Source of the DNA: Candidatus Sigynarchaeum calidifontis
GTDB taxonomy: Archaea; Asgardarchaeota; Lokiarchaeia; Sigyniarchaeales; Sigyniarchaeaceae
Assembly: GCA_030587475.2 (NCBI GenBank)
Contig: JAUQYZ020000105.1
Span: forward strand, 1-12,915
DNA length: 12,915 bases
Direction: 5' to 3'
The position numbers were made by a program, and so were the translations under genes. The notes beneath the pieces are model-generated. The model made no database searches. It worked only from the letters and a program-made list of their open reading frames with translations, and was not told the origin of the DNA. Position 1 is the stretch's first letter. Each line of letters opens with the position of its first letter. Shown in pieces: positions 1 through 12,915 of the stretch.

Positions 1-514
1 AATTTGGCGCGACGTTGATGATCTGTTCGAGCGGGGTGCTCGTATCTATTTTATCGAGGTCTTGCATTGTCGATTCGAATGCACCAGCTTGCGATGCTGC
101 TTGTGCTTCCAACGTGCTTTGCATCTCGAATAGCTGGAGCGCATGCAATTTCTGTTCGGAACGGGGCCGTTGCACGAGCTGGGACTTGTCGACGTTGAAG
201 GCCTTGAGAAGGAATTCAAAAGAGTCCTTGAGAAGTGCCTTCACCGCAGTGGATCGATCCTTCTCATCGTCGGGGAGGCAGAGATACCCCTTTTTTACCT
301 TCATTTTATGTTTATCGAGGATTTCTTGAACACTTGATTTAAATTCCTTGTTTTTATCGAGTTGTAAAGCAGCATAAAATAGATTTTCGGCGATCTTTCC
401 ATCTCTTTCCAAGACTTTTTTCAATTGCGCGAGACGAGATTTAAACAGATCAGCATTCGTCGTTTCGCTCAAGTTTTCCACCCGTTCCCTAGTTCGCGCG
501 CTTGTCTTGGTCAT
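1..514 (-). CDS. Hypothetical protein, N-terminal 171 aa; runs off the left edge
   Basis: Manual translation from ATG at 514 gives MTKTSARTRERVENLSETTNADLFKSRLAQLKKVLERDGKIAENLFYAALQLDK...DLDKIDTSTPLEQIINVAPN with no stop for 171 codons. An in-frame TAG at 548-550 bounds it upstream. The composition is charged and helical. It is absent from the ORF track because its stop lies outside the window. No family recognised. Confidence 0.8.
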   Translation of the reverse strand, partial: MTKTSARTRERVENLSETTNADLFKSRLAQLKKVLERDGKIAENLFYAALQLDKNKEFKSSVQEILDKHKMKVKKGYLCLPDDEKDRSTAVKALLKDSFEFLLKAFNVDKSQLVQRPRSEQKLHALQLFEMQSTLEAQAASQAGAFESTMQDLDKIDTSTPLEQIINVAPN

Positions 515-561
515 GTTTCGATAGCCAGTGATGGCTTCGGCGATGATCTACCCTTGCCGGC

Positions 562-588
562 AATAGAATTCATCCCGATGATTCTATT
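562..588. promoter_or_regulatory. Inverted repeat in the divergent intergenic region (candidate operator or hairpin)
   Basis: AATAGAA-T-TCAT-CCCG-ATGA-TTCTATT: 11-bp arms with one bulge. A second AT-rich palindrome, AGAAT-ATA-ATTCT, lies at 601-613. Function is inferred from position only. Confidence 0.35.
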
Positions 589-737
589 CTCCACTGCAAC
601 AGAATATAATTCTTTTTACCCGGAGCGAAAATTGCTCACGTCGAGAACTTGATCGAATTCCAAAGCAATATTCTGTTGCGATCAAGGTTAAATTGCGTGG
701 AAATCGATATAGCATAACGAATCGAGTTGACCGGCAC

Positions 738-1106
738 ATGCACGTGCGAGCTTGCATCGTGAAGACTGCCCAATACAAAGCCAGCGGGGAAGAAGGCAAG
801 TATTCGGAAGCGTACAGGCGAGAGGCAACGGTTTTGCTCGTGCACCCCGATGACATGGTCGCGTGGCAATTCAAGGAAGGGATGCACGTCGCGTGTTCTA
901 ACCAAGAGAAAAAACAAGCCGTGATCCTCGCCGTGAAACAAACGAGAAATGTTCGCAAAGGTATGGTGAACATCATCGCTTCGCCATGGACAGCTTGCTT
1001 GTTGCAAGACGATCGCCGCTTCGTCGACCTCGATGTCGAGCCGTCGACCGAGGAGATTCTCCCGCTCGATCAATTATTATCGATCAAGAGGCCTGGTGCC
1101 AGGTGA
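738..1106 (+). CDS. fwdD: Formylmethanofuran dehydrogenase subunit D-like protein (molybdopterin dinucleotide-binding fold), divergent
   Basis: 122 aa from ATG 738. GKYSEAYRREATVLLVHPDDM...KEG...GMVNIIASPW...VEPSTEEILPLDQLL follows the FwdD pattern (K.S..Y...A....NPEDM..LG..EG...G.VFIP.GPW...VEPT.E.VL...LL). It lies directly upstream of an fwdA homologue. Confidence 0.8.
   Translation: MHVRACIVKTAQYKASGEEGKYSEAYRREATVLLVHPDDMVAWQFKEGMHVACSNQEKKQAVILAVKQTRNVRKGMVNIIASPWTACLLQDDRRFVDLDVEPSTEEILPLDQLLSIKRPGAR
1101..1106 (+). promoter_or_regulatory. Shine-Dalgarno-like AGGTGA overlapping the fwdD-like stop codon
   Basis: AGGTGA-GC-ATG(1109). The spacing is short, but the arrangement suggests translational coupling of the two genes. 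Confidence 0.4.
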
Positions 1107-1108
1107 GC

Positions 1109-2743
1109 ATGAACTCCATCTTGATTCGCAACTGTAGCTGCCTCGACCCCCTCCATGGCACACAGTTCGAGTCGAAAGACCTCCTCATCAAGGATGGCTT
1201 TTTTCGACCGAAAGTTGATGGTAATTCAGAGAACACGAGAGAAATCGATGCAAATGGCCGGGTAGTGGTGCCAGGCGGGATATTGCCATCATTTAAATTG
1301 CCGGCGGGGTTAACATTCGAATCCTCTCTAGATCTCGCCGCTAGTGCACGTGCACTCGTTGAAACGGGATTCACGACTGTCGTCATCGACGGCATCACGC
1401 CATTCACGGCACTTGATGCTCACCAGCGGATACAACGCCTCCCGGTCGTGAACAAGGTGCCAATCATAGACTTTGCGAACTTCCAATTCTTCACCGGTTT
1501 CTTGAAAAACGGGGTATCGAACTACGCAGCTGAAGTCGCGGCCTCCATCCTCCGCAAGATGAAGGGCCATGGCATATCAGCCATCGGCCCGGGAAGCACG
1601 CTCGAATGGAGCAAGTCTACAGAACCCGGAACCCGCACCATGAGCGCGCCAATTCCTTTTCTCGGCATGAACATCGAGAAGCTGGTGATCGAGCTCGTCG
1701 GCATCCACGATCACGGGTTTTTCAAGCCAGGAATGCTTCTAGAAACGGGCATCGAGGGTTTCCCCGCTTCCAGGGCGCAACTCGACGGTTTATTAGCACG
1801 CATAACTGGCGCGATAAAAAGCGGGGGAAACGAGCCACTTGTAGCGATAAAACAGCTCGCGAGATATGCTCTGGATCCCGATTACAAGGGTGGCGAAATC
1901 GCCGAGAACGTGCCCGTCGCCGAGGCTGCAATGGCAGCAGCGGACAACATCGCGGGGTTGGTCGATCTTCCAAGCATGGATTTCACACGCACCACATACA
2001 TAGACAACGCGGCATCGCCACTCCACGATTCCAAAGGCATACTCTCCCGGGGCATCATCGAGGGCGAGCTTTTCGTGATCACCTATTCCATAAGCGAAAA
2101 AGAAAAGCTTGATCTCGCTGCACGGTTCTGGCTCGCCGGGATGAAATTTGCCCTCGACATGCCAGCACCACTCAAGGAACGAGTGGCTTTTAGCTTGATG
2201 CCGCAGCTCATCAATAGCAATTCAAGCATAGCGGGCAACATGGGTTGCCTCCTTAGCGAGCGGTACCGTCTCTCCAAAAGGATGGTGTTCCCCGACGCGT
2301 CGAGCAAGTCACGCGCCGCGGAATTACTGAAAGGCAAGGAAATGACCTTTCCGGAGCTAGTGAACTTCACCCGGGCAGTTCCCGCTAAGATATTCGGACT
2401 GGACAAGCTCCTCGGTGGTTTCGGGGACGGCCAGATTGGCGATGTTATCATCTTGAACGCCCGGCCAGGAGATCTCGACCGGTTGCGAGACGAACCGGAT
2501 CATTTGCACGATCTGCTCACTAATCCTTTCGCCGTGATAAAAGGGGGAATGGTGGCACTCGAGAACGGGCACTTTAACCCGGTGATCCGGGGATACACGA
2601 TGCTCCACGAGGTCCAGGGCGATTCAACTATTGCCGACAGCATCGAGCAGAACTTGGACAAGCAATTCTTGAAATACTACTCGACACATCTCGACGGGAA
2701 GATCGTGCCAGCATCGCTCGTCGAACCGGCGATCACAGATTGA
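1109..2743 (+). CDS. fwdA: Formylmethanofuran dehydrogenase subunit A-like amidohydrolase-fold protein, predicted catalytically inactive
   Basis: 544 aa from ATG 1109, collinear with FwdA along its length: ILIRN...DPLHG...KDLLIKDG, IDANGRVVVPGG, GFTTVV, KG.GI.AIGPG...W, PIPFLG, W..GM.FAL, LLS..YR, EMTF.EL...TRA.PAKI.GL, G..GD..I, VIKGG, F..YYS. The metal-ligand positions are substituted (see findings). Confidence 0.85.
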   Translation: MNSILIRNCSCLDPLHGTQFESKDLLIKDGFFRPKVDGNSENTREIDANGRVVVPGGILPSFKLPAGLTFESSLDLAASARALVETGFTTVVIDGITPFTALDAHQRIQRLPVVNKVPIIDFANFQFFTGFLKNGVSNYAAEVAASILRKMKGHGISAIGPGSTLEWSKSTEPGTRTMSAPIPFLGMNIEKLVIELVGIHDHGFFKPGMLLETGIEGFPASRAQLDGLLARITGAIKSGGNEPLVAIKQLARYALDPDYKGGEIAENVPVAEAAMAAADNIAGLVDLPSMDFTRTTYIDNAASPLHDSKGILSRGIIEGELFVITYSISEKEKLDLAARFWLAGMKFALDMPAPLKERVAFSLMPQLINSNSSIAGNMGCLLSERYRLSKRMVFPDASSKSRAAELLKGKEMTFPELVNFTRAVPAKIFGLDKLLGGFGDGQIGDVIILNARPGDLDRLRDEPDHLHDLLTNPFAVIKGGMVALENGHFNPVIRGYTMLHEVQGDSTIADSIEQNLDKQFLKYYSTHLDGKIVPASLVEPAITD

Positions 2744-2790
2744 TCGAACATTTCCCGGCCATCGTGCACGATGTATTAAGAGAAAAACAA

Positions 2791-2796
2791 AGGAGG
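2791..2796 (+). promoter_or_regulatory. Shine-Dalgarno AGGAGG for hdrA
   Basis: AGGAGG lies 9 nt before the in-frame GTG at 2806, which immediately precedes the HdrA N-terminal motif RIGIFICHCG. Confidence 0.65.
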
Positions 2797-2805
2797 CAAG
2801 GTTTC

Positions 2806-5139
2806 GTGACCACCCCGAAAGAACGCATCGGGATATTCATTTGCCATTGCGGTTTCAACATCGCTGGCGTGCTGGACATCAAGCGCATCATCGAACACTT
2901 TTCGCGCAAGGACAACTATCCCGACGTGGCCATCACCGAGCACAAGTATTTTTGCTCAGATGCAGGGCTCCTCCAGATGAAACAAGATATCAAGGAGCTC
3001 GGAATCTCGAGGATGATCGTCGCGGCATGTACCATGAAGCTGCATGGCGAGCTTTTCAGGAATGTTGCAGAGGAATCGGGCATCAACAGGTTCCTCGTCG
3101 AGTTCGCAAACATCCGGGAACAAAACTCGTGGGTTCACGCACACCAGCCGGTCGAGGCGACCGACAAGGCCATCGACCAGATCAACATGGCGATCCAGAA
3201 GGTGCGCCTCGCCATCGCGCTCGACGTGACCACGAGCCCGGTTGCCCGCGCCGCGCTCGTGATCGGGGGCGGCGTGGCCGGTATAAAGGCCGCGCTCGCC
3301 CTCGGCGACGCCGGCATCAAGACTTGGCTCGTCGACCGCCAGCCCACGATAGGCGGCCACATGGCATTGTTCGACAAGACCTTTCCCACGCTCGACTGTT
3401 CTATCTGCGTGCTTGGTCCGGAGATGGTGCACGTCAAGGAGCACCCGAACATCACGTTGCTCACGTATTCTACCATCGAAGAAGTCTCTGGTTTCGCCGG
3501 GAACTTCACGGTTCGCATCCGGAAAAAAGCCCGCTTGATTGACGAGAAAAAATGCGCGGGCTGCTTCAACGATTGCTGCGACGTTTGCCCCGTTGACGTG
3601 GATGATCCCTACTATCCGCGCCACGCGATATACGTTCCCTACCCCCAAGCCGTGCCCTTGATACCCGTGATCGACGCGGAGAAGTGCATTCACTGCCGAG
3701 CTTGCGAGATAGGCTGCCAGCGGGAGGCGATCAAGTTTGAACAGCAAGACGAGATCGTGGAGGTCCAAACAGGTGCCATCATCGTAGCGACGGGATTCGA
3801 AGCCTTCGATCCAACCATCAAGCGCGAGTTCGGTTATGGGGTGCACGCAGACGTCATCACCGGCATGGAGATGGAGCGCATGCTCAATCCCTATGGTCCC
3901 ACGGGCGGTAGGATCATCAAGCCATCAACGGGCGAGAAGCCGGCGAGCATCGCCTACGTGTTGTGCGTCGGGGCGAGGGATGACAAGGTCGGTAACCCGT
4001 GGTGCTCCCGTGTCTGCTGCAATTATTCAATCAAGCAAGCCATCCAGCTCAAGGAGCGCGTTCCCGAAGTCCAAGTTCAAGTTTTTTACACGGACTTGCG
4101 CGCAACGGGGAAAGGTTGTGAAGAGTTCCTGAACCGGGCGAGATCAGAGTTTGAAATCAAATTCACGCGAGGACGTGTTTCCAGGATAGCTAGGGAGGAT
4201 GTTGGGAACAAGTTGGTGATCGAGGCGGAGGACACGCTCGTCCAGAAACGGATCGAATGCCTTTTCGATCTCGTCATCTTGTCAACGAGCATGGTGCCGC
4301 CGCAAGACACGAAGAACCTGGCCAAGGTCCTGAACATCAGCACCGGCGCGGATGGTTTTTTTCTGGAGGATCACTTGAAGATGCGTCCCGCACAGAGCAC
4401 GCTTCGGGGAATATTCTTGGCCGGCGTGGCACAAGGGCCAAAAGACATTCCCGAGTCCATCGCCCACGCGGAATCTGCCGCGAGCAAGGTTATCGGCATG
4501 ATCTCCAGGGGTTTTATCGAAATCGATCCGCGAAAGATTCGCTATGACGTGAACAAGTGCATCAAGTGCAAACTCTGCACGCAGATATGCACGTTCGGTG
4601 CACTCGAGTTCAAGGACGACCGGGTCGAAGTGGCACTGCCAAACTGCACCGGATGCGGCGCATGCCAGGCGATGTGCCCGTCCAGCGCGTTATACATACC
4701 GGGTTTCACGAAAAACGAGATATTGACCCAGATCGATGCTGCCACGAAAGAAAAAAAGATATCACCCCTCATCATCGCGTTCCTATGCAACTGGTGCTCC
4801 TACGCGGGCGCGGATCTTGCAGGCACGGCAAAAATGCAATACCCGCCCAACGCGAGGATCATACACGTGATGTGCTCCGCCATGGTCGATCCGCTCTACG
4901 TGTTCACGGCATTCGCAAGAGGGGCAGATGGTGTTCTCGTCGCGGGGTGTTACGAGCAAGATTGCCATTATGCCACGGGTTTCGCAAAAACAAGGGCGCG
5001 AGGCGAGGCGATCAAGACCATAATCGAACAAATGGGAATAAAAGATTACCGGTTCGTCGTGGAAAGCGTTTCCGCGGGCGAGGGAAAAAAGTTTCAGGAG
5101 CTCATTGAAAAATTCACCGCACGCTTGAGGAACCTTTGA
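2806..5139 (+). CDS. hdrA: Heterodisulfide reductase subunit A fused to a C-terminal MvhD/FlpD [2Fe-2S] domain
   Basis: N-terminal CHCG...FCS...AACT...NIREQNSW; FAD-binding IGGGVAG; DKTFPTLDCSIC; inserted ferredoxin (CAGCFNDCCDVCP, CIHCRACEIGC); EMERM; CVGAR...CSRVCC...KQA; GVAQGPKDI; C-terminal 2x[4Fe-4S] (CIKCKLCTQIC, CTGCGACQAMCP). The MvhD domain starts at ~4771 (FLCNWCSYAGAD, VMCS, GADGVLVAGC...DCHY, SAGEG). An alternative start is TTG 2740, overlapping the fwdA stop. Confidence 0.96.
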   Translation: MTTPKERIGIFICHCGFNIAGVLDIKRIIEHFSRKDNYPDVAITEHKYFCSDAGLLQMKQDIKELGISRMIVAACTMKLHGELFRNVAEESGINRFLVEFANIREQNSWVHAHQPVEATDKAIDQINMAIQKVRLAIALDVTTSPVARAALVIGGGVAGIKAALALGDAGIKTWLVDRQPTIGGHMALFDKTFPTLDCSICVLGPEMVHVKEHPNITLLTYSTIEEVSGFAGNFTVRIRKKARLIDEKKCAGCFNDCCDVCPVDVDDPYYPRHAIYVPYPQAVPLIPVIDAEKCIHCRACEIGCQREAIKFEQQDEIVEVQTGAIIVATGFEAFDPTIKREFGYGVHADVITGMEMERMLNPYGPTGGRIIKPSTGEKPASIAYVLCVGARDDKVGNPWCSRVCCNYSIKQAIQLKERVPEVQVQVFYTDLRATGKGCEEFLNRARSEFEIKFTRGRVSRIAREDVGNKLVIEAEDTLVQKRIECLFDLVILSTSMVPPQDTKNLAKVLNISTGADGFFLEDHLKMRPAQSTLRGIFLAGVAQGPKDIPESIAHAESAASKVIGMISRGFIEIDPRKIRYDVNKCIKCKLCTQICTFGALEFKDDRVEVALPNCTGCGACQAMCPSSALYIPGFTKNEILTQIDAATKEKKISPLIIAFLCNWCSYAGADLAGTAKMQYPPNARIIHVMCSAMVDPLYVFTAFARGADGVLVAGCYEQDCHYATGFAKTRARGEAIKTIIEQMGIKDYRFVVESVSAGEGKKFQELIEKFTARLRNL

Positions 5140-5141
5140 TT

Positions 5142-5360
5142 TCACGAATTGCCCGGGATCGTGCCTTTTCGCTGCTTTTTCAACGCGACCATCTTGCGAA
5201 CGAGCATCAAGGCAAAAACAGCGATGACGAGAACGTAGATCATCCATGTCGCCCCGAATATGAAATGAAATATGAAAAGGATTACCACGACCCCGATTAT
5301 AACGAGAACAGCGAATAATCCGTTTTTCATGGAATCGCTAAGGGGCGCGGGCATCGGCAT
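5142..5360 (-). CDS. Small membrane protein, 72 aa, two predicted transmembrane helices
   Basis: MPMPAPLSDSMKNGLFAVLVIIGVVVILFIFHFIFGATWMIYVLVIAVFALMLVRKMVALKKQRKGTIPGNS: two hydrophobic segments and a basic tail. It fills the gap between hdrA and the GTPase gene. The start could be 5360, 5354 or 5330. Confidence 0.75.
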   Translation of the reverse strand: MPMPAPLSDSMKNGLFAVLVIIGVVVILFIFHFIFGATWMIYVLVIAVFALMLVRKMVALKKQRKGTIPGNS

Positions 5361-5400
5361 CACGACGGGTTGCGAAATTAAGAAAAGAACTCGTGGGATG

Positions 5401-5919
5401 TCACTTGAATTTATTATAGAAGTACTCAGCGAGGACTTCCACGGGCTTCGAGACATTCTCGCCAGTCTTGCTACTCGTGCGAAAATATGCAAGGATACCG
5501 TTGCTCTTGATGAATGCCTTGATTTCTTCGTCGGGCACGCGCATCTCCTTGTCTTCCAGGTCAGCCTTCGTGGCGATGAGGACAAGAGGAAGGTCAGGTT
5601 TCTCCGATCGTAACAAGTTGGCCCATTCACCGAGGTTCATGAAGCTCTGGACGCGATCGAGGGCGAAGAAAAGGAGTCCAGCATGCGCGCCGCGAACGTA
5701 AGATTTTAAGATGAAGCGAAACTGCTCTTGTCCCCCAAGATCCCAAATCGCAAAATTAAAAACTAAATCGCCAAACGGGATAATCTTGTTGAGAAAGTCC
5801 ACGCCAACGGTCAACCGGGTATCGGCCAAGAAGACGTTGGTACAATACCTGTGCAAGAACGTGGTCTTGCCGACTCCACCATCCCCGCCAACCACGACCT
5901 TGTTCACTATCGTCTTCAA
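5401..5919 (-). CDS. Rab-like small GTPase (Ras superfamily, Asgard-type)
   Basis: G1 GDGGVGKT, G2/RabF1-like TVGVDF, G3 IWDLGGQ, EQFR, RabF4-like YVRGA, G4 TKAD, G5 TSSK. TTG start with GGTGA (5931-5927) 7 nt upstream. No C-terminal Cys. Confidence 0.95.
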   Translation of the reverse strand: MKTIVNKVVVGGDGGVGKTTFLHRYCTNVFLADTRLTVGVDFLNKIIPFGDLVFNFAIWDLGGQEQFRFILKSYVRGAHAGLLFFALDRVQSFMNLGEWANLLRSEKPDLPLVLIATKADLEDKEMRVPDEEIKAFIKSNGILAYFRTSSKTGENVSKPVEVLAEYFYNKFK

Positions 5920-6084
5920 AGCCCGTTCACCATTCCAATCGTTTTGTCCCGATCTTTATGCTGCATACCCTCCAGATTTCGTCCGCACGAGAGATTGAAT
6001 GGAATCCGCGTCGCGAAATCGCTCGCCACGCTTGATCGTGCACGTGAGGGGCTTTTTGCTTGATCTACTATTAGACGTGAATCA

Positions 6085-6090
6085 TTTATA
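6085..6090. promoter_or_regulatory. Candidate archaeal TATA box in the divergent GTPase/acyl-CoA dehydrogenase intergenic region
   Basis: TTTATA on the + strand reads TATAAA on the - strand, near the middle of the 324-bp gap. No transcription start data. Confidence 0.3.
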
Positions 6091-6243
6091 CGTTATGACC
6101 AATTCCTAAGGAAAAACATCACCAATTATCCGGCCAATCTTGCCTCGTTTTACCCGATGGATTCCATCCCTGCAACTCTCTTTCAATTTGCCACTTCACG
6201 CGTGCGGATAATTCTTATTTTGTCCCATCGCTTTGTTCCCTTG

Positions 6244-7407
6244 ATGGATTTCCAGTTCACCCCGATCCAACTGTTGATTCAAAGGTCGATTCGCCGGTTC
6301 GCCAAGGAAATGCTTGCAGTCTTGGCACCTATACTGGACAAGGAACACCAGACGCACCCGAAAGAGATCATCAACCAGCTCGCGGCCCAGAACCTCTACG
6401 GGATCCAGGTTCCCGAGGAGTACGAGGGCGCGGGGCTGGACTCGATTTCCTACTGCCTGGCGATCGAGGAGATTTCGAAAGCTTGCGCCGCGACGGGGCT
6501 CATGGTGACCGTGCACAACTCGGTCGTGGCTTTACCCATCGCAACCTTCGGAACGGATGACCAGAAACGACGATACTTGTCAGACCTGGCCTCGGGGCGC
6601 AAGATCGGCGCCTTTTCGATCACGGAACCGAATGCGGGCTCCGACGTCTCGGGAATGCAGACGGTCGCCGTGAAGGACGGCAACGATTACGTGCTCAACG
6701 GGATGAAATGCTTCGTAACCAACGGCGCGATCGCCGAGACCTATATCATCGGTGCGACCGTGGACCGAAAGGCCGGGAACAAGGGCGTCGCGCTTTTTTT
6801 GGTCGAGAAATCTTTTCCGGGCGTGTCCGTTGGGAAGATCGAGCGGAAAATGGGCATGCGAGCGAATCCCGTGTCCGAGTTGTTCTTCGACAATGTCCGG
6901 GTACCGAAAGAGAATGTGTTAGGCAAGGTCACCGATGGCTTCAAGCTATCGATGAAGATCCTTGACATGGGAAGGATCGGCATCGCGGCCCAATCGCTGG
7001 GGATCGGCATGGCCGCGTTCGAGGCCGCCGCGAGGTATGCCACGGAACGAAAGCAGTTCAACCAACCGATCGGGGAGTTCCAAGCGATCAAGTTCAAGCT
7101 CGCGGAAATGAAGGCAAACCTGGAATCCGCACGGTATCTGATCTATAGAGCAGCCGACCTGAAGGACCATGGCTTGCCGTACTCGGAGGCTTCTGCCATG
7201 GCAAAGTATGTGGCGGCCGAAAATGCCATGAAGGCGTGTACCGATGCAATGCAGATCTTCGGCGGGTACGGCTACGTGGAGGAATTACCCGTCGAACGGT
7301 ACTTTCGTGATTGCAAGATCACCCAGATTTACGAGGGAACGAGCGAGATCATGCAGATCATAATAGGAAATGCCATTTTAAAGGAATTTTCCGGAGGGTT
7401 TTCCTGA
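6244..7407 (+). CDS. Acyl-CoA dehydrogenase (short/branched-chain, butyryl-CoA dehydrogenase-like)
   Basis: 387 aa from ATG 6244 (MDFQFT...). Motifs: PEEYEGAG, GAFSITEPNAGSD, LNGMKCFVTNG, KMGMRA, GRIGIAAQSLG, RKQFNQPI..FQAI.FKLA, QIFGGYGY, RD.KITQIYEGTSEI with the catalytic Glu in YEG. Confidence 0.96.
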   Translation: MDFQFTPIQLLIQRSIRRFAKEMLAVLAPILDKEHQTHPKEIINQLAAQNLYGIQVPEEYEGAGLDSISYCLAIEEISKACAATGLMVTVHNSVVALPIATFGTDDQKRRYLSDLASGRKIGAFSITEPNAGSDVSGMQTVAVKDGNDYVLNGMKCFVTNGAIAETYIIGATVDRKAGNKGVALFLVEKSFPGVSVGKIERKMGMRANPVSELFFDNVRVPKENVLGKVTDGFKLSMKILDMGRIGIAAQSLGIGMAAFEAAARYATERKQFNQPIGEFQAIKFKLAEMKANLESARYLIYRAADLKDHGLPYSEASAMAKYVAAENAMKACTDAMQIFGGYGYVEELPVERYFRDCKITQIYEGTSEIMQIIIGNAILKEFSGGFS

Positions 7408-8192
7408 TGCTCAACATCGCGGTTCTCGTCAAGCAAGTTCCCGCCAATAAATCGGTGAAAATGAACCCGGATGGGACCTTGGTGCGCGAGGGTGCCCTCG
7501 TCGTCAACCCGGATGATTTGAACGCGACCGAGGCTGCGTTGGCCATCAAGGAGCAATACGGCGGGAAAATCACCGCCATCAGCATGGGGCCACCCCAGGC
7601 AAAAGATGCCATCATCGAAGTGAAAGCAATGGGGGTCGACAAGGGCGTGCTGATTTGTGACCCGAAGCTCAAGGGTTCCGACACGTGGGTGACGACGAAG
7701 GTCTTGGTCGCGGGCTTGAAGAATCTAGGGCCTTTTGACTTGATCTTCGCGGGCGTGGAGGCGATCGACGGCAACACCGCCCACGTGCCTTATCAAGTCT
7801 CGCAATTGATGAAAATACCCTTGATCACGCAGTTCCAGAACTTGAGGGTTGAGGAGGGGAAGTTAATCACGAACCGTATAAAGGGACACGAGTTCCAGCT
7901 CGTGCGGGCCCCGCTCCCGGTTATCATCACGGCTAGCAAGCAATCGAACCGGCCGCGTTATTACAATTTACGCCGGATCAAGCACGCTTTCGACGAGGAG
8001 GTGGAAGTCCTCGATCTAAAACAGCTCGGGATCGACGAGAAAGAGGTCGGCGCGGTTGGTTCTCCTACCCGGGTATTGAAAATAACACAGAACGTGCATA
8101 AGCGACAAAATAAGAAAATAGAGGGAACAGACAAGGAGATCGTTAATAAATTCATCGAGTTATTAACCCGGAATAATTTATTGAAGACATGA
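7407..8192 (+). CDS. etfB: Electron transfer flavoprotein beta subunit (EtfB/FixA family)
   Basis: The ATG overlaps the acyl-CoA dehydrogenase stop (TGATG). Motifs: VKQVP, GTL.R, NP.D..A.E.AL, SMGPPQA, GSDTW.T, G.EAIDGNTAHV, N.PRY, G..GSPT.V. 261 aa. Confidence 0.95.
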   Translation: MLNIAVLVKQVPANKSVKMNPDGTLVREGALVVNPDDLNATEAALAIKEQYGGKITAISMGPPQAKDAIIEVKAMGVDKGVLICDPKLKGSDTWVTTKVLVAGLKNLGPFDLIFAGVEAIDGNTAHVPYQVSQLMKIPLITQFQNLRVEEGKLITNRIKGHEFQLVRAPLPVIITASKQSNRPRYYNLRRIKHAFDEEVEVLDLKQLGIDEKEVGAVGSPTRVLKITQNVHKRQNKKIEGTDKEIVNKFIELLTRNNLLKT

Positions 8193-8207
8193 GAGGTTGA
8201 ACGCAAA

Positions 8208-9287
8208 ACGCCGGCTGGAATCGGCTCGTCCCAATACAAAGACATCTGCGTCTTTGTCGAGATCAAGGATCACGAGGTGGTCCATCCAGGGAGCATCGAG
8301 CTGCTCGGGAAGGCGCGCGAGATTGCAGACCAACTGCACCAGGAGGTAATGGCCTTCACGTTCGGGATGGATTGCGAGCAATACCTCGATTCGATCCAGG
8401 GCTACCGGCCTGACAAGGTCTTTTACTATTCCACGCCAAACCCCGACAAGACGTTCAAGCATTTTAACGAGGAGATAATAGTTCCATTATTCGTGGAGTT
8501 TCTCAAGCAACACAAGCCCTCCATCGTTTTACTGGCCGCGACCGAAACGGGAAGGGAATTGGCAGCCAGGATTGCCCAAGAGCTCGACACAGGCTTGACG
8601 GCAGATTGCACGGACTTGTCGATCGAAAGCCACCCGACATACGGGAAAGATTTACTCGTGATGGCAAAACCGGCATTTGGTGGCAATTTCCAAGCATCGA
8701 TCATTTGTCCGACACGTCGCCCCCAGATCTGCACTGTTCGGCCAGGCACGTTCCACCGGCCGAAGCATGACCCGAAATGCAAAGCGGACATAATCCGCCT
8801 CACGCCAACTTCCCTGCCAAGCCTCATCGTCGGGTTACTGGCCGATCCCACGCGATACAGCCTCCCGTGTTCGAGGCTTGAAGAATCGGACATCATCGTC
8901 GCGGGAGGGAACGGGGTCGGTTCCAAGGAGGGCTTCAAGTTGCTGGAAAAACTCGCGTTCATGCTCCGGGCAGAGGTCGCGGCCACCCGGGTGGCGGTGT
9001 TCAACGGCTGGGCGAGCGAGGACAAGATCATCGGGCAAACCGGCCACATCGTCAGGCCCAAGTTGTACCTGGCATTCGGTATCAGCGGCCAGATCCAACA
9101 CACCATGGGCATGAACGAGTCCGGCATCATCATCGCCATCAACAACGATCCAAACGCCCCGATCCACGATATCGCCGATTACTCGATCATTGCCGACATC
9201 AAGACTTTTCTCCCGACACTTATCACCGAGCTTGAAAAATTCGTGAATCTACGATTCCGAAACAGCAATTTTTCAGAACAGAAATAG
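8208..9287 (+). CDS. etfA: Electron transfer flavoprotein alpha subunit (EtfA/FixB family); start codon uncertain
   Basis: Motifs: YKDICVFVE, SIELLGKAR, GRELAARIA..L.TGLTADCT, KPAFGG, PQ.CTVRPG, IVAGG.G, ATR.AV..GW, IGQTG..V.PKLY.A.GISGQIQH..GM, AIN.D..API. Homology begins at ~8235, upstream of the first canonical start (GTG 8277). The coordinate given is an ACG downstream of an SD-like element. Confidence 0.92.
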   Translation, partial: TPAGIGSSQYKDICVFVEIKDHEVVHPGSIELLGKAREIADQLHQEVMAFTFGMDCEQYLDSIQGYRPDKVFYYSTPNPDKTFKHFNEEIIVPLFVEFLKQHKPSIVLLAATETGRELAARIAQELDTGLTADCTDLSIESHPTYGKDLLVMAKPAFGGNFQASIICPTRRPQICTVRPGTFHRPKHDPKCKADIIRLTPTSLPSLIVGLLADPTRYSLPCSRLEESDIIVAGGNGVGSKEGFKLLEKLAFMLRAEVAATRVAVFNGWASEDKIIGQTGHIVRPKLYLAFGISGQIQHTMGMNESGIIIAINNDPNAPIHDIADYSIIADIKTFLPTLITELEKFVNLRFRNSNFSEQK

Positions 9288-9301
9288 AAAGTTTATGGTT
9301 T

Positions 9302-10798
9302 TCAAGTTTCCTTCCGTGTTTTCTCGACCGCCTCGAACTGGAATTGGATCTTGCCAAGCCCGCCCCTTTTTTCCCAATTGATAAAGACAAACAACCCGAT
9401 CAGCATCGGGATGATGACCACGAATCGAGCGACGAGCACGACCAACGTGCCAAATCCCAGGTAATTTTTCACGACTATGTAACCGCTATACCCGAGGAGG
9501 AGCAGCCATGCAAAGACATGTTGATCAACGTTCACGTGAACGATGTCGTATATTATCAGACCTTTCCGATACCGCGCGGAGTCGGCCGACAGGTTCAACC
9601 CGATGAGCGGGATGATCCAGGTGATGTAATGGTAATTTATAGACGGGTATATGAGGAGCAGAAGGAGGATGCTATTGATGAAAAACTTGAAGTCGATCTC
9701 CTTGACATGAAAGAGAACGTAATAGAGTAACACGATGATTATCAACAAGGGTGGGAGGTAATTCAAGAACGGGATGTTCAAGTATTTTAAATAATAACTC
9801 CAGTTCAAATTATATGCCTCTTCCCAAACAGTGAAGTGCCAGCCAAATCTAAGCAAGTTTTCGAAGAATACAAGGCCCTCGATTATGAAATAGATGCCAA
9901 CCTGCAAAAACCCGGAAATCAACGTCGAAAACAAGTAAACCTTGAAGGCCTTCCATCGCCTCGTTTTCAACAAGTACACCAGGATGCCCGCAAGCCATAA
10001 AAACGCGTATACTTTGAAAAAACCGCAATAAACGAAGATAAAGGCCGAGCGAAACCACTTTTTCTCGAGCAAGTAGTATATGCCGGCAAGCGACAAGAAA
10101 ATGACGAAGATATCGAACTTTTGATATAACACGACGATGAATGCTTGAATCGCGGAGAACGTGTAAAAAAGCAACGCAGACGTCGTGGAATTTGCATCCA
10201 GTCCCAACGCCTTGATCCGGGTGATTTTCAAGACCAACCAGGACGCGCCCAGGTCAAAAAAGAGCATCTGCATGCGAAAGACGAGGGGACTCTTGGCCGG
10301 GTTGATCAGATAGAGGAAAACGAAGAAGAGCGAGCACCCCGGCGGGTAATAGAAGATGCTTTGATATTCCGTGCCAGGAACGTCCAATATCTGGCCATAG
10401 AGATATTTTCGCCCGTACTCGTAATCCGTGATGAAATTATCGTTTCCAGGAAACACGCCCAGGAGCTGCAAGATAACGGTAATCACCATCTTGACGAAAA
10501 ACGCCCCGATCAAGAATTGGAGCGGGTTTCTCAGTGACCCACCTTTTCGGAAAAAAACGGGATAGAGCAAAATGAGGAACGAATAACACAACGAAGAACC
10601 GATTTGTATGATAACTATGTTCCGGTCAGAAACAGACATGTCAATGAGCAATGCAGGCGCAAAAAGAATGTATGAGCTCAAGACAAAGGCCATTATGCTT
10701 AAATAAATTGTATAAAACTTAGCGTTCTTCTTGAAAAGGGCGCCTAACTTGGAAAATATCGATGATGGGGGCGCATTCCCAAAATTTGATATTTCCAT
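9302..10798 (-). CDS. Polytopic membrane glycosyltransferase, GT87/DUF2029 (GT-C, mannosyltransferase-like)
   Basis: 498 aa with roughly a dozen hydrophobic segments. Motifs typical of GT87/PIG-M-like proteins: D..Y...Y.YPP, Q.D...I, G..K.Y, and .Y..W..P (HYITWIIP). Substrate unknown. Confidence 0.7.
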   Translation of the reverse strand: MEISNFGNAPPSSIFSKLGALFKKNAKFYTIYLSIMAFVLSSYILFAPALLIDMSVSDRNIVIIQIGSSLCYSFLILLYPVFFRKGGSLRNPLQFLIGAFFVKMVITVILQLLGVFPGNDNFITDYEYGRKYLYGQILDVPGTEYQSIFYYPPGCSLFFVFLYLINPAKSPLVFRMQMLFFDLGASWLVLKITRIKALGLDANSTTSALLFYTFSAIQAFIVVLYQKFDIFVIFLSLAGIYYLLEKKWFRSAFIFVYCGFFKVYAFLWLAGILVYLLKTRRWKAFKVYLFSTLISGFLQVGIYFIIEGLVFFENLLRFGWHFTVWEEAYNLNWSYYLKYLNIPFLNYLPPLLIIIVLLYYVLFHVKEIDFKFFINSILLLLLIYPSINYHYITWIIPLIGLNLSADSARYRKGLIIYDIVHVNVDQHVFAWLLLLGYSGYIVVKNYLGFGTLVVLVARFVVIIPMLIGLFVFINWEKRGGLGKIQFQFEAVEKTRKET

Positions 10799-10885
10799 AT
10801 CAAAGCGATCCGTGCCTCGCGCCCTACATTAATTCATCGAATAATGGGCAATCAATCAACGATAACCAGGGGGTAGCAACGTGGG

Positions 10886-11107
10886 AAGATTATGAGACGA
10901 ACAAGGCGTCTCGCAATCTTTGCGAGCATTATCACGATATCCATTTTGTCCATGAGCAGGTGGCATCACCAATCAACACGAGAAGGATCTTTAAAGGAGG
11001 CGTGATGATTCCTTCGGCCACGACCATCATCAAAGGTAATGCTGGCGGCTGCATTCCCCGGGAATGCATTTATCGGATATCAAGCCTTAATTGCCGGAGC
11101 ATTATCA
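10886..11107. repeat. Cluster of inverted repeats and one direct repeat in a long intergenic region (candidate structured RNA or regulatory array)
   Basis: Hairpin 10886-10920; overlapping alternative hairpin 10910-10926; TGATGAT/ATCATCA at 11003-11032; palindrome TGCATTCCC-C-GGGAATGCA at 11050-11068; stem 11035-11043/11098-11106; direct repeat GAGCATTATCA at 10924 and 11097. Confidence 0.5.
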
Positions 11108-11284
11108 AATTAGCTTCATTTCAACGAAATTGCTTATCTTTTTGCTTCCATGTAAGCGTCCATTCTCATACTTTCATTCGCCTGGGAACTTGATCGGACG
11201 GGGAGGCGCGAGCGCTTTTGTCGTTAAAAAGAAGTTAATATGATAAACTCAAGTAATTGTAGTAGTGTTCGATAACGTGTAATA

Positions 11285-12721
11285 TCACCAGAGAAGATGG
11301 ATGAAAAAATCCCGGAACGACAGTATCTTGTTTTTGAGCTGGGATATCTGGAAATATTTTATCGAGAGAAGAATCGTCTGGATTATTCCTGGAAACCTGA
11401 ATAACTTTCTCCGAAAAGCGCTTTTCTGGGACGTGAATAAATATTCTGGAGATAAAGTTCCCAGGAGGAAACCGTTCCTTTGCGTGTATGTAGTTAACTT
11501 GTTCCAATCAAAATTCAATAAATCTTTTCCCTTTGACCAATTCTCGAAAAGCTTAGAACCTGGAAGGGGTTTCAAGAGAAAGAATTCGGAATATGTAAAA
11601 GGAACGGAAATGGCATACCGTATCGTTTTTTCGATGGTTTCCTCCGTGTCTTCGGGAAATCCGATCATGAAAAAGCTGTTTATCAAGAAACCCATTTTTT
11701 TTGCGATGACCGTGTTATACATGATTTTCTTGAGATCGGTGAATTTTCCATTCGATCTTAAGATCCGAATCGAAGCCGATTCGACAGCAAATGTAAGCTC
11801 ATAAAACCCGGCCTGCCGCATCAGCTTCAGAAGCGATTCATCCAGGGTATCGACTCTTAGACCATTGGGTGTGCCGAATGCCAAGTGGTTTAACCTGCGT
11901 TTGATTATTTCTGTACAAATTCCCACGATATGCTCCCGCCGCAGCGTGACATTGTCGTCCCAAAAGTGGATCTCCCGGATGCCAAATTTCTCGTGTAAAT
12001 ATTGGATCTCGTCGACGACGTTTTTCGGACTGCGGTATCGGATCTTTCGTTTCCAAAACTGGCATGAAGCACAATAGGCGCAATCATACGGGCATCCACG
12101 TGAAGAGATGATGGATGCAAATTTCTTATATTTCAAGACCACGCCATGTGGAACCCTTGGATAGCGGTTCGGGTTGATCTTGTGCCATGCAGGGAAAGGG
12201 ATCGTGTCCAGGTCCGGTATCAAAGCTCTCTCCTTGGACATGACGATTTTGCCACTCGCGAGGAATGCCAGGCCGGCAATCTTGCTTGGATCTGGATCGC
12301 TCTTGAGCATCTCCTTGGCGAGTTCTACCATGGTTTCTTCCCCCTCGCCTATGACCACGAAATCCGCGCGACATTCGACGAGGCATTCGGAGGGCAATGC
12401 ACTCGCATGGACACCCCCCAAGACGATTCGTATTCCTGGAAGGTGTTCCTTGATATACAACGAGATTCTCTTCATCCCGTTATAATATGCAGTTAAAGCC
12501 GAGATGCCAACGAGTACCGGTTGTCTCTTTTTTAAAAACGTGCACAGCACGTCCAGTGAGACGTTTTTAAGGGATAAATCAACAATGTCCGCTCTAAAAC
12601 CCGCATTTTCCAAGCACGATGCGATATAACCTAGTCCAATCGGAGGATTTACTTGCCGGAAACTCTCCGGGATGGTCGATTCAAAACCGGGGCGGATTAA
12701 CACGACGCAAGGTCGATTCAT
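11285..12721 (-). CDS. Cobalamin (B12)-binding radical SAM protein (class B methyltransferase-like)
   Basis: N-terminal B12 domain (PPIGLGYIA, VGISA, IVLGGVHAS, DFVVIGEGE), then SRGCPYDCAYC (CxxxCxxC), RSP.NVVDEI, F.DDN, ESAS, FMIGFP.DT, P.PGS.L. AGGTGA SD lies 7 nt upstream of ATG 12721. Confidence 0.93.
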   Translation of the reverse strand: MNRPCVVLIRPGFESTIPESFRQVNPPIGLGYIASCLENAGFRADIVDLSLKNVSLDVLCTFLKKRQPVLVGISALTAYYNGMKRISLYIKEHLPGIRIVLGGVHASALPSECLVECRADFVVIGEGEETMVELAKEMLKSDPDPSKIAGLAFLASGKIVMSKERALIPDLDTIPFPAWHKINPNRYPRVPHGVVLKYKKFASIISSRGCPYDCAYCASCQFWKRKIRYRSPKNVVDEIQYLHEKFGIREIHFWDDNVTLRREHIVGICTEIIKRRLNHLAFGTPNGLRVDTLDESLLKLMRQAGFYELTFAVESASIRILRSNGKFTDLKKIMYNTVIAKKMGFLINSFFMIGFPEDTEETIEKTIRYAISVPFTYSEFFLLKPLPGSKLFENWSKGKDLLNFDWNKLTTYTQRNGFLLGTLSPEYLFTSQKSAFRRKLFRFPGIIQTILLSIKYFQISQLKNKILSFRDFFIHLLW

Positions 12722-12915
12722 TCAATTATCACCTGCGATCATTGCTTGCTCCTTTAATCTTTCGATTCCCAGTATTCGCTCTCGCACGGTGAACATGTTC
12801 CCCGTGTTCGCCTTCGCATCGAACGACGATGTCCGCCGTGCCCTTCGCCACGATCACCCGATGCTCGATGGTCGCCCACGGGCCCCCCATCACGATTTTC
12901 CTCGTAGGACACGTT
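12722..12915 (-). pseudogene. Truncated B12-binding radical SAM paralogue (3' part; begins outside the window)
   Basis: The frame from 12914 reads TCPTRKIVMGGPWATIEHRVIVAKGTADIVVRCEGEH, a clear B12-domain motif set. It then loses similarity and stops at TGA 12731-12729 with no CxxxCxxC domain. Not in the ORF track. Confidence 0.7.

Follow-up and report, generated by a model that had tools for sequence, protein, structure and literature searches.

What might a FwdD-like and a FwdA-like protein without cofactor motifs do directly ahead of an intact HdrA-MvhD fusion? This question is raised by a stretch of 12,915 nucleotides (nt) from Candidatus Sigynarchaeum calidifontis (contig JAUQYZ020000105.1, positions 1 to 12,915; the whole stretch is called the window in the following), in which three co-directional genes, here termed D′, A′ and hdrA-mvhD, form a tightly packed trio (Table 1). 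In methanogens, energy conservation centres on Hdr-Fwd supercomplexes, and Asgard archaea are the closest known relatives of eukaryotes. We found that all three genes are under purifying selection and stay together across Asgard lineages, and that a second locus on contig C264 of the same genome encodes divergent counterparts of FwdB, a ferredoxin, HdrC and HdrB, termed B′, G′, HdrC′ and HdrB′. The two loci may encode one complex in which the Fwd-derived part would be a non-catalytic scaffold.

A′ is a paralogue of FwdA. It scored 118 bits against the FwdA model TIGR03121 (cut-off 392.75), compared to 763 bits for the canonical FwdA of the same genome, and 97 bits against NF042911 (cut-off 950); the comparison with the FwdA chain 5t5i_A in the PDB gave an E-value of 1.7e-23. 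The AlphaFold model of A′ has a predicted local distance difference test (pLDDT) score of 88.7 and a predicted template modelling (pTM) score of 0.93. It superimposes on the FwdA/FmdA chains 5t61_G, 5t5i_A, 8rja_A and 7bkb_G with template modelling (TM) scores of 0.83–0.87, on FhcA with 0.77–0.81 and on other amidohydrolases with ∼0.5. Since the model is confident and the TM scores to FwdA, FmdA and FhcA are high, A′ is predicted to keep the whole FwdA architecture, that is the amidohydrolase barrel together with the FwdA-specific domains. The ligand positions were read from an alignment with the genome's own canonical FwdA: all ligands of the binuclear zinc site (HxH, the carboxylated Lys, two His motifs and the Asp segment) are replaced or deleted in A′, and a segment of ∼25 residues downstream of HxH is absent. 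In the family as a whole the metal site is destroyed in all 14 full-length members examined, with a single His left in one of them (P0023). Three former ligand positions carry conserved residues, namely Ser (12/14), Ser (13/14) and Glu (12/14); the remaining positions are variable or hydrophobic, and the catalytic-Asp segment is changed in every member. Judged from its sequence, A′ is probably non-catalytic. Its most conserved stretch is a C-terminal K-x-F-x-x-Y-Y-S region, which is common to canonical FwdA.

When 1.84 billion representatives were searched exhaustively with a profile, 11 representatives of the A′ family were found at E ≤ 1e-92 and, after a gap, ordinary FwdA with complete ligands at 1e-29. 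The A′ proteins formed a monophyletic clade with a long stem in a quick maximum-likelihood tree (Shimodaira–Hasegawa-like approximate likelihood ratio test, SH-aLRT, 100). A search of genomes of the class for the closest FwdA relatives that still bear ligands (P0027 type, with Asn in place of Asp) gave no match at E 1e-150. A weak FwdA match on contig C74 was discarded, as it is an ordinary, unrelated amidohydrolase adjoining methylmalonyl-CoA mutase and MeaB.

D′ gave 28.5 bits with Pfam PF01568 (Molydop_binding), just above the cut-off of 26.8, and 30.8 bits with the NCBIfam FwdD model NF042908, below the cut-off of 175. The AlphaFold model (pLDDT 85.6) shows a FwdD-type beta-barrel fold: its top seven matches in the PDB are FwdD/FmdD chains with TM scores of 0.72–0.81 (0.78–0.81 for the best five). 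Compared to the canonical FwdD of the genome, 8 residues are deleted in D′ and the N-terminal segment has diverged. Cys53 is invariant and a ‘KTAQ’ motif is conserved among the 12 orthologues known. Like A′, D′ is presumably non-catalytic.

The third protein of the trio is intact. HdrA-MvhD matches the HdrA2 model NF040770 with 972 bits, colinear over positions 1–770 of 777, and PF02662 (FlpD/MvhD) with 157 bits; because 972 bits lie below the 1100-bit ‘exception’ cut-off, it is not the Methanosarcina orthologue. The HdrA part is ∼50% identical to the solved HdrA of M. marburgensis (8rvu) and matches it at every Cys cluster motif, MvhD chains align with the C-terminus, and the GxGxxG motif for flavin adenine dinucleotide (FAD) is present. 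A first-pass annotation made from the sequence alone had described the trio as a full-length FwdA-like reading frame without cofactor motifs, a degenerate FwdD-like one and an HdrA-MvhD that retains all Fe-S and FAD motifs; the comparisons above agree with each of these descriptions. Orthologues of the trio-linked HdrA-MvhD are 68–72% identical even where A′ is down to 31–35%; among the ∼350 other Asgard genomes in which a match was obtained, the best HdrA-MvhD outside the trio has 50–56% identity. The trio-linked HdrA-MvhD is a distinct, slowly evolving clade.

The ratios of nonsynonymous to synonymous substitution rates (Nei–Gojobori, taken from the less saturated pairs) are 0.10–0.19 for D′, 0.18–0.23 for A′ and ∼0.10 for HdrA-MvhD. 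All three genes are under purifying selection, and A′ and D′ are degenerate Fwd paralogues and not pseudogenes, in support of the first-pass annotation. The synteny across Asgard genomes that it had proposed to test was borne out as well: at least 12 independent contigs from Asgard archaea (with the labels Lokiarchaeia, Promethearchaeota, Hodarchaeota and Sigynarchaeota) carry the order D′-A′-hdrA/mvhD with one HdrA-MvhD clade. The flanks of the trio are unrelated in L009 (integrase/GT2 glycosyltransferase), L036, L037 and a contig of P0021. Among 400 genomes sampled across the phylum A′ occurs in four, all of them in one GTDB family. Fused forms longer than 952 amino acids (A′-HdrA or D′-A′) were not found in the search, which is weak evidence.

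Within the trio, the 2-nt gap between D′ and A′ is replaced by a 4-nt overlap in most relatives, and the spacer between A′ and hdrA measures 62 nt in the window and 12–68 nt across related loci. Two starts of hdrA had been considered before, one leaving the 62-nt gap and one giving a TTGA overlap. The GTG at 2806 is the start codon and the gap stands; the alternative TTG at 2740 was rejected, as homologues of 777–783 amino acids and the conserved GGAGG at 2792–2796 favour 2806. This Shine-Dalgarno-like element or a one-base variant of it lies at the same spot ahead of hdrA in seven out of seven aligned loci (the window and six others), and no conserved TATA-like element was seen in the spacer of these loci. 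The conserved GGAGG and the lack of such a TATA-like element are consistent with hdrA as an internal cistron of one putative D′-A′-hdrA transcript. The tight co-directional packing, the divergent left and convergent right flanks and the coordinates were all confirmed. However, the conclusions that the unit is complete within the window and that HdrA-MvhD stands alone, without fwdB or hdrBC, were not supported: a dead FwdB, a ferredoxin and divergent HdrC and HdrB are encoded by the second locus (C264 in this genome), which occurs in the same genomes.

C264 carries a divergent arrangement with G′-B′ on one strand and HdrC′-HdrB′ on the other; the encoded proteins measure 134 (G′), 407 (B′), 196 (HdrC′) and 323 (HdrB′) residues. 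G′ is a ferredoxin of the 2x[4Fe-4S] type and takes the place that fwdG holds in G-B-D clusters. B′ is FwdB-like (205 bits, cut-off 328; E 4.5e-40 to 5t5i_B); it retains the N-terminal Cys cluster, and the Cys-His of the tungsten site is changed to Ile-Phe, with Val there in orthologues. HdrC′ (55–85 bits) and HdrB′ (202 bits) each score below their family cut-off; both adjoin B′ and share its distribution. The four-gene arrangement is kept in three other genomes of the family, and the 4 genomes with B′ among the 400 sampled from the phylum are precisely those with A′. In a collection of 5.8 billion proteins the B′ family comprises ∼26 members of 38–72% identity, followed after a gap by canonical FwdB at ≤30%. 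The A′ and B′ families have the locus-tag prefixes JW839, VKM55, ACTSWN and ACTSUE in common, lie in neighbouring accession blocks in three MHA assemblies and one MFX assembly, and both include Sigynarchaeota and Hodarchaeota labels. There is good support, though no proof, for the linkage of the trio and the C264 locus. Neither of the two loci was found to contain an Ftr-like or FwdC-like gene, a FwdF polyferredoxin or a hydrogenase or Fdh donor. B′ is adjoined by a 298-amino-acid HFX_2341_N/Csa3-like protein with a Rossmann and a winged-helix part (C264:2843-3739, locus L077). Each of the four family genomes has this protein in that position (54–79% identity), and it could serve as a regulator of the G′-B′/HdrC′B′ locus.

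A separate canonical set, the presence of which had been left to be checked, exists in the same genome with fwdA, fwdDB, fwdC and hdrABC. The normal fwdA is also genetically tied to Hdr, and the canonical fwdDB and fwdC lie on other contigs. Canonical FwdA is encoded in all four A′-bearing genomes of the family, this one and three relatives. An unannotatable gene of 206 amino acids lies just ahead of the canonical fwdA on C136.

The reading we prefer, to which we give an even chance, is a two-locus Fwd′(A′B′D′G′)-Hdr′(A-MvhD, B′, C′) complex with a Fwd part that acts as non-catalytic scaffold and Fe-S wire. The D′-A′-hdrA/mvhD operon and the C264 genes would together encode one paralogous Fwd-like/Hdr-like complex, in which HdrA-MvhD (FAD, six [4Fe-4S] and one [2Fe-2S]) and HdrB′C′ would do the redox chemistry, possibly by flavin-based bifurcation with a disulfide-type site. 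With both catalytic centres gone (the zinc site of A′ and the tungsten/molybdenum Cys of B′), the Fwd-derived part would survive as a scaffold. The clusters of G′ and the N-terminal [4Fe-4S] of B′ could form a short Fe-S wire that connects to or docks on the MvhD/HdrA side. Both the assembly of the seven proteins into one complex and the electron route through it are predictions from the encoded sequences.

Several observations weigh against such a complex. The two loci are unlinked; their coordinates in the closed 3.7-Mb genome of the relative G280 differ by 2.8 Mb. In the same genome (L042, C1:2822000-2840000, positions 4025-8071) the hdrA of the trio stops after ∼390 residues and abuts an unrelated acyl-CoA-synthetase fragment and a transposase-like open reading frame of 578 amino acids, and an orthologous C-terminal half of hdrA was not found elsewhere in the G280 genome; A′ and D′ are intact and open beside the truncated gene, which is odd if they depend on HdrA. 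The co-occurrence of A′ and B′ is partly one evolutionary event, as all four genomes belong to one GTDB family, and at the level of metagenome-assembled genomes the two were matched by locus-tag and accession patterns and not by genome search. With ∼17 genes for CCG-domain (HdrB/D-like) proteins and at least seven HdrA paralogues in the genome the assignment of partners is not unique. Furthermore, the conserved Ser/Ser/Glu of A′ could indicate a rebuilt rather than a dead pocket.

This last point leads to two related alternatives. It is doubtful, but conceivable, that A′ is a rebuilt protein with a pocket for a small molecule (methanofuran-like or other); as a subunit that binds a ligand or catalyses without metal, it would feed or gate HdrA-MvhD. 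The polar residues at the three former ligand positions, the full FwdA fold including the barrel at high model confidence and the strong selection speak for such a role. However, the remaining former ligands have given way to variable or hydrophobic residues, the Asp segment is changed in all members, a new motif of the kind expected for a cofactor site was not seen, and the data also fit a filled-in structural pocket, as in the CRMP pseudo-hydantoinases. Extended to the whole Fwd-like part, the idea would make A′B′D′G′ a rebuilt enzyme or receptor with re-lined pockets in A′ (Ser/Ser/Glu) and B′ for a novel substrate or cofactor, and the Asgard-specific HdrA-MvhD/HdrB′C′ would couple flavin-based bifurcation to a reaction that is new for Hdr and Fwd; we regard this as rather improbable.

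Other alternatives concern the partners. The trio could be self-contained, with the pseudo-Fwd pair as scaffold or adaptor of a stand-alone HdrA-MvhD and the C264 locus belonging elsewhere. The trio does move alone between different genomic contexts, and HdrA2-type proteins can act without dedicated donors (PMC12054007), but the trio holds no electron donor or acceptor site besides HdrA itself, and B′, G′ and HdrB′C′ match its narrow distribution exactly and are the very subunits it lacks, so that we consider this account unlikely. Very improbable is a role of A′ and D′ as decoys that replace FwdA and FwdD on the canonical Fwd, giving a formate-releasing FwdBC enzyme or a regulated Fwd, with the adjacency of hdrA reflecting co-regulation only. 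Such decoys would find a canonical FwdA in every A′-bearing genome of the family, and the C-terminal region that A′ has in common with it might be a retained subunit interface; on the other hand, the dedicated dead B′ in the same genomes gives A′ and D′ a B partner of their own, and the separate, highly conserved clade of trio-linked HdrA argues for a specific partnership.

The association of FwdA-like genes with HdrA recurs outside the trio. Two further FwdA-like clades, from other Asgard lineages and with metal ligands partly or fully lost, fall outside the A′ clade in our tree. In the first, HxH and Asp are kept and the Lys and one His are lost; in a genome of a sister family, one of its genes shares 4 nt with the beginning of the gene for a 56%-identical HdrA-MvhD, and in another metagenome-assembled genome an HdrA-like gene follows after 8 nt. 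One member of the second clade lies three genes upstream of HdrA-MvhD, and another has no HdrA within its contig. The proteins of 186 and 308 amino acids between the FwdA-like gene of the ‘dead2’ clade and HdrA-MvhD (L069) were considered as counterparts of D′ and are not D′-like. In a genome of a further family (L063:6933-9653, G270) a 55%-identical HdrA-MvhD is preceded by a CxxCxxCC-domain protein and by an FdhA-like molybdopterin protein that has diverged (207 bits, cut-off 666).

We compared the proposed complex to known systems. The Hdr-Fmd/Fwd supercomplexes of methanogens (Fdh-Hdr-Fmd of M. hungatei, PDB 7bkb; Mvh-Hdr-Fmd of M. marburgensis, PMC13580544) draw on the same families HdrA, MvhD, HdrB/C, FwdA/B/D and ferredoxin; like here, the Fwd and Hdr genes are genetically coupled and the HdrA core is ∼50% identical. 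In contrast to these supercomplexes with their competent FwdA and FwdB, A′ has no zinc ligands and B′ has Ile-Phe instead of Cys-His, MvhD is fused to HdrA, and the host, an Asgard archaeon that is not a methanogen, possesses a normal Fwd besides. A cofactor-less molybdopterin oxidoreductase (‘Molybdop’) has been described in hdrABC-mvhD-fdhB clusters of Methanosarcinales/ANME-2 (PMC12054007): like here, a FwdB/FdhA-like protein that lacks the metal-ligating Cys accompanies an Hdr/MvhD module. Methanosarcina carries a partial fwdG2B2D2 set (PMC2838876) of the G-B-D type without A and C. Both lack a FwdA-like subunit, whereas here a dead FwdA is the largest component of the Fwd-like set, D′ travels with A′ and not with B′, and the genes are split over two loci. 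Candidatus Methanonezhaarchaeum YNP3N, a methanogen of the Thermoproteota, has a second FwdBD(FG)-HdrABC cluster (PMC12700198). As in the present case, a duplicated partial Fwd lies beside Hdr in addition to a separate canonical FwdABCD, and it was interpreted as repurposed; however, its FwdBD was proposed to be an active formate-oxidizing module without FwdA, while here the A and B homologues are both devoid of catalytic residues.

The Fhc complex of methylotrophs (FhcABCD, PDB 6s6y) is likewise derived from Fwd, and its FhcB has lost the pterin chemistry and serves structurally. The first-pass annotation had viewed the trio as an inversion of Fhc, in which B is degenerate and A active; this contrast was not supported, as A and B are both dead here. 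Furthermore, FhcA is an active hydrolase and Fhc has no Hdr, whereas A′ is without a metal site and its proposed partner is HdrA-MvhD; counterparts of the Ftr-like FhcD and of FhcC are absent from both loci. The proposed Fwd′ scaffold may be likened to FhcB and also to NuoG of complex I, which keeps a dead molybdopterin domain. The CRMP/dihydropyrimidinase-like pseudoenzymes, which are among the weaker fold matches of A′, are scaffolds with an amidohydrolase fold that has lost its metal ligands; they belong to an unrelated eukaryotic lineage and process, and the likeness is an analogy only. Full-text literature searches returned no description of a ligand-less FwdA or of the D′-A′-HdrA/MvhD trio.

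Table 1. Location of the trio, its neighbours and related loci (plain numbers are window positions; other entries give contig or locus)
Feature	Position	Strand	Basis or remark
D′ (FwdD-like, beta-barrel, 122 amino acids)	738..1106	+	Pfam/NCBIfam matches, AlphaFold model
A′ (FwdA-like pseudo-amidohydrolase, 544 amino acids)	1109..2743	+	TIGR03121, AlphaFold model, ligand alignment
GGAGG, Shine-Dalgarno-like, 9 nt ahead of hdrA start, within 62-nt A′-hdrA spacer	2792..2796	+	
HdrA-MvhD fusion (HdrA2 type, 777 amino acids, intact)	2806..5139	+	NF040770, PF02662
Left neighbour, divergent	2-514	-	N-terminal part of a conserved protein of 570-610 amino acids
Right neighbour, convergent	ends 5142	-	
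Canonical fwdA, directly upstream of hdrC-hdrB-hdrA (unfused)	C136:3105-8836 (locus L021)	-	763 bits
Canonical FwdD-FwdB	C118		
Canonical FwdC	C12		
Ftr (single in genome)	C249		
Other FwdA-like clade loci near HdrA(-MvhD)	L062:8165-9718 (G130), L070:3478-4968, L069:6001-11731		

In the surroundings of the trio, the protein encoded by the left neighbour has no family match in Pfam or NCBIfam; homologues were found at L008:5364-7151 and L037:3747-5450, and a class I methyltransferase gene follows the left-neighbour gene in Loki-type contexts and in one distant context. An arginyl-tRNA synthetase gene lies close to the trio in three different arrangements. Upstream of D′, the divergent intergenic region contains a perfect 12-nt inverted repeat, GCAACAGAATAT / ATATTCTGTTGC, at window positions 596–607 and 668–679 with arms 60 nt apart, and a TATA-like ATATAG is located ∼26–31 nt ahead of the D′ start codon. 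Downstream of the trio, genes for an acyl-CoA dehydrogenase and EtfB/EtfA (window 6157–9287) are present in all Loki-type contexts. They were rejected as part of the system, as they are absent beside the trio in L009, L036, L037 and the P0021 contig (Sigyn-, Hod- and other distant contexts); their adjacency is probably synteny by descent.

The seven-gene set of ∼2,500 residues, in which a dead Fwd is tied to its own HdrA-MvhD, HdrB and HdrC, is a clean case for the reuse of Hdr-Fwd parts outside methanogenesis, with a normal and a doubly dead Fwd in one genome. Database annotation of these proteins as ‘formylmethanofuran dehydrogenase subunit A/B’ or as hypothetical can inflate reconstructions of the Wood-Ljungdahl pathway. 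If the parts do assemble, a whole CO2-reducing enzyme would have been kept purely as architecture or wiring for a bifurcating flavoprotein, and the genes would provide a defined set for probing the electron donors and acceptors of Asgard Hdr complexes.

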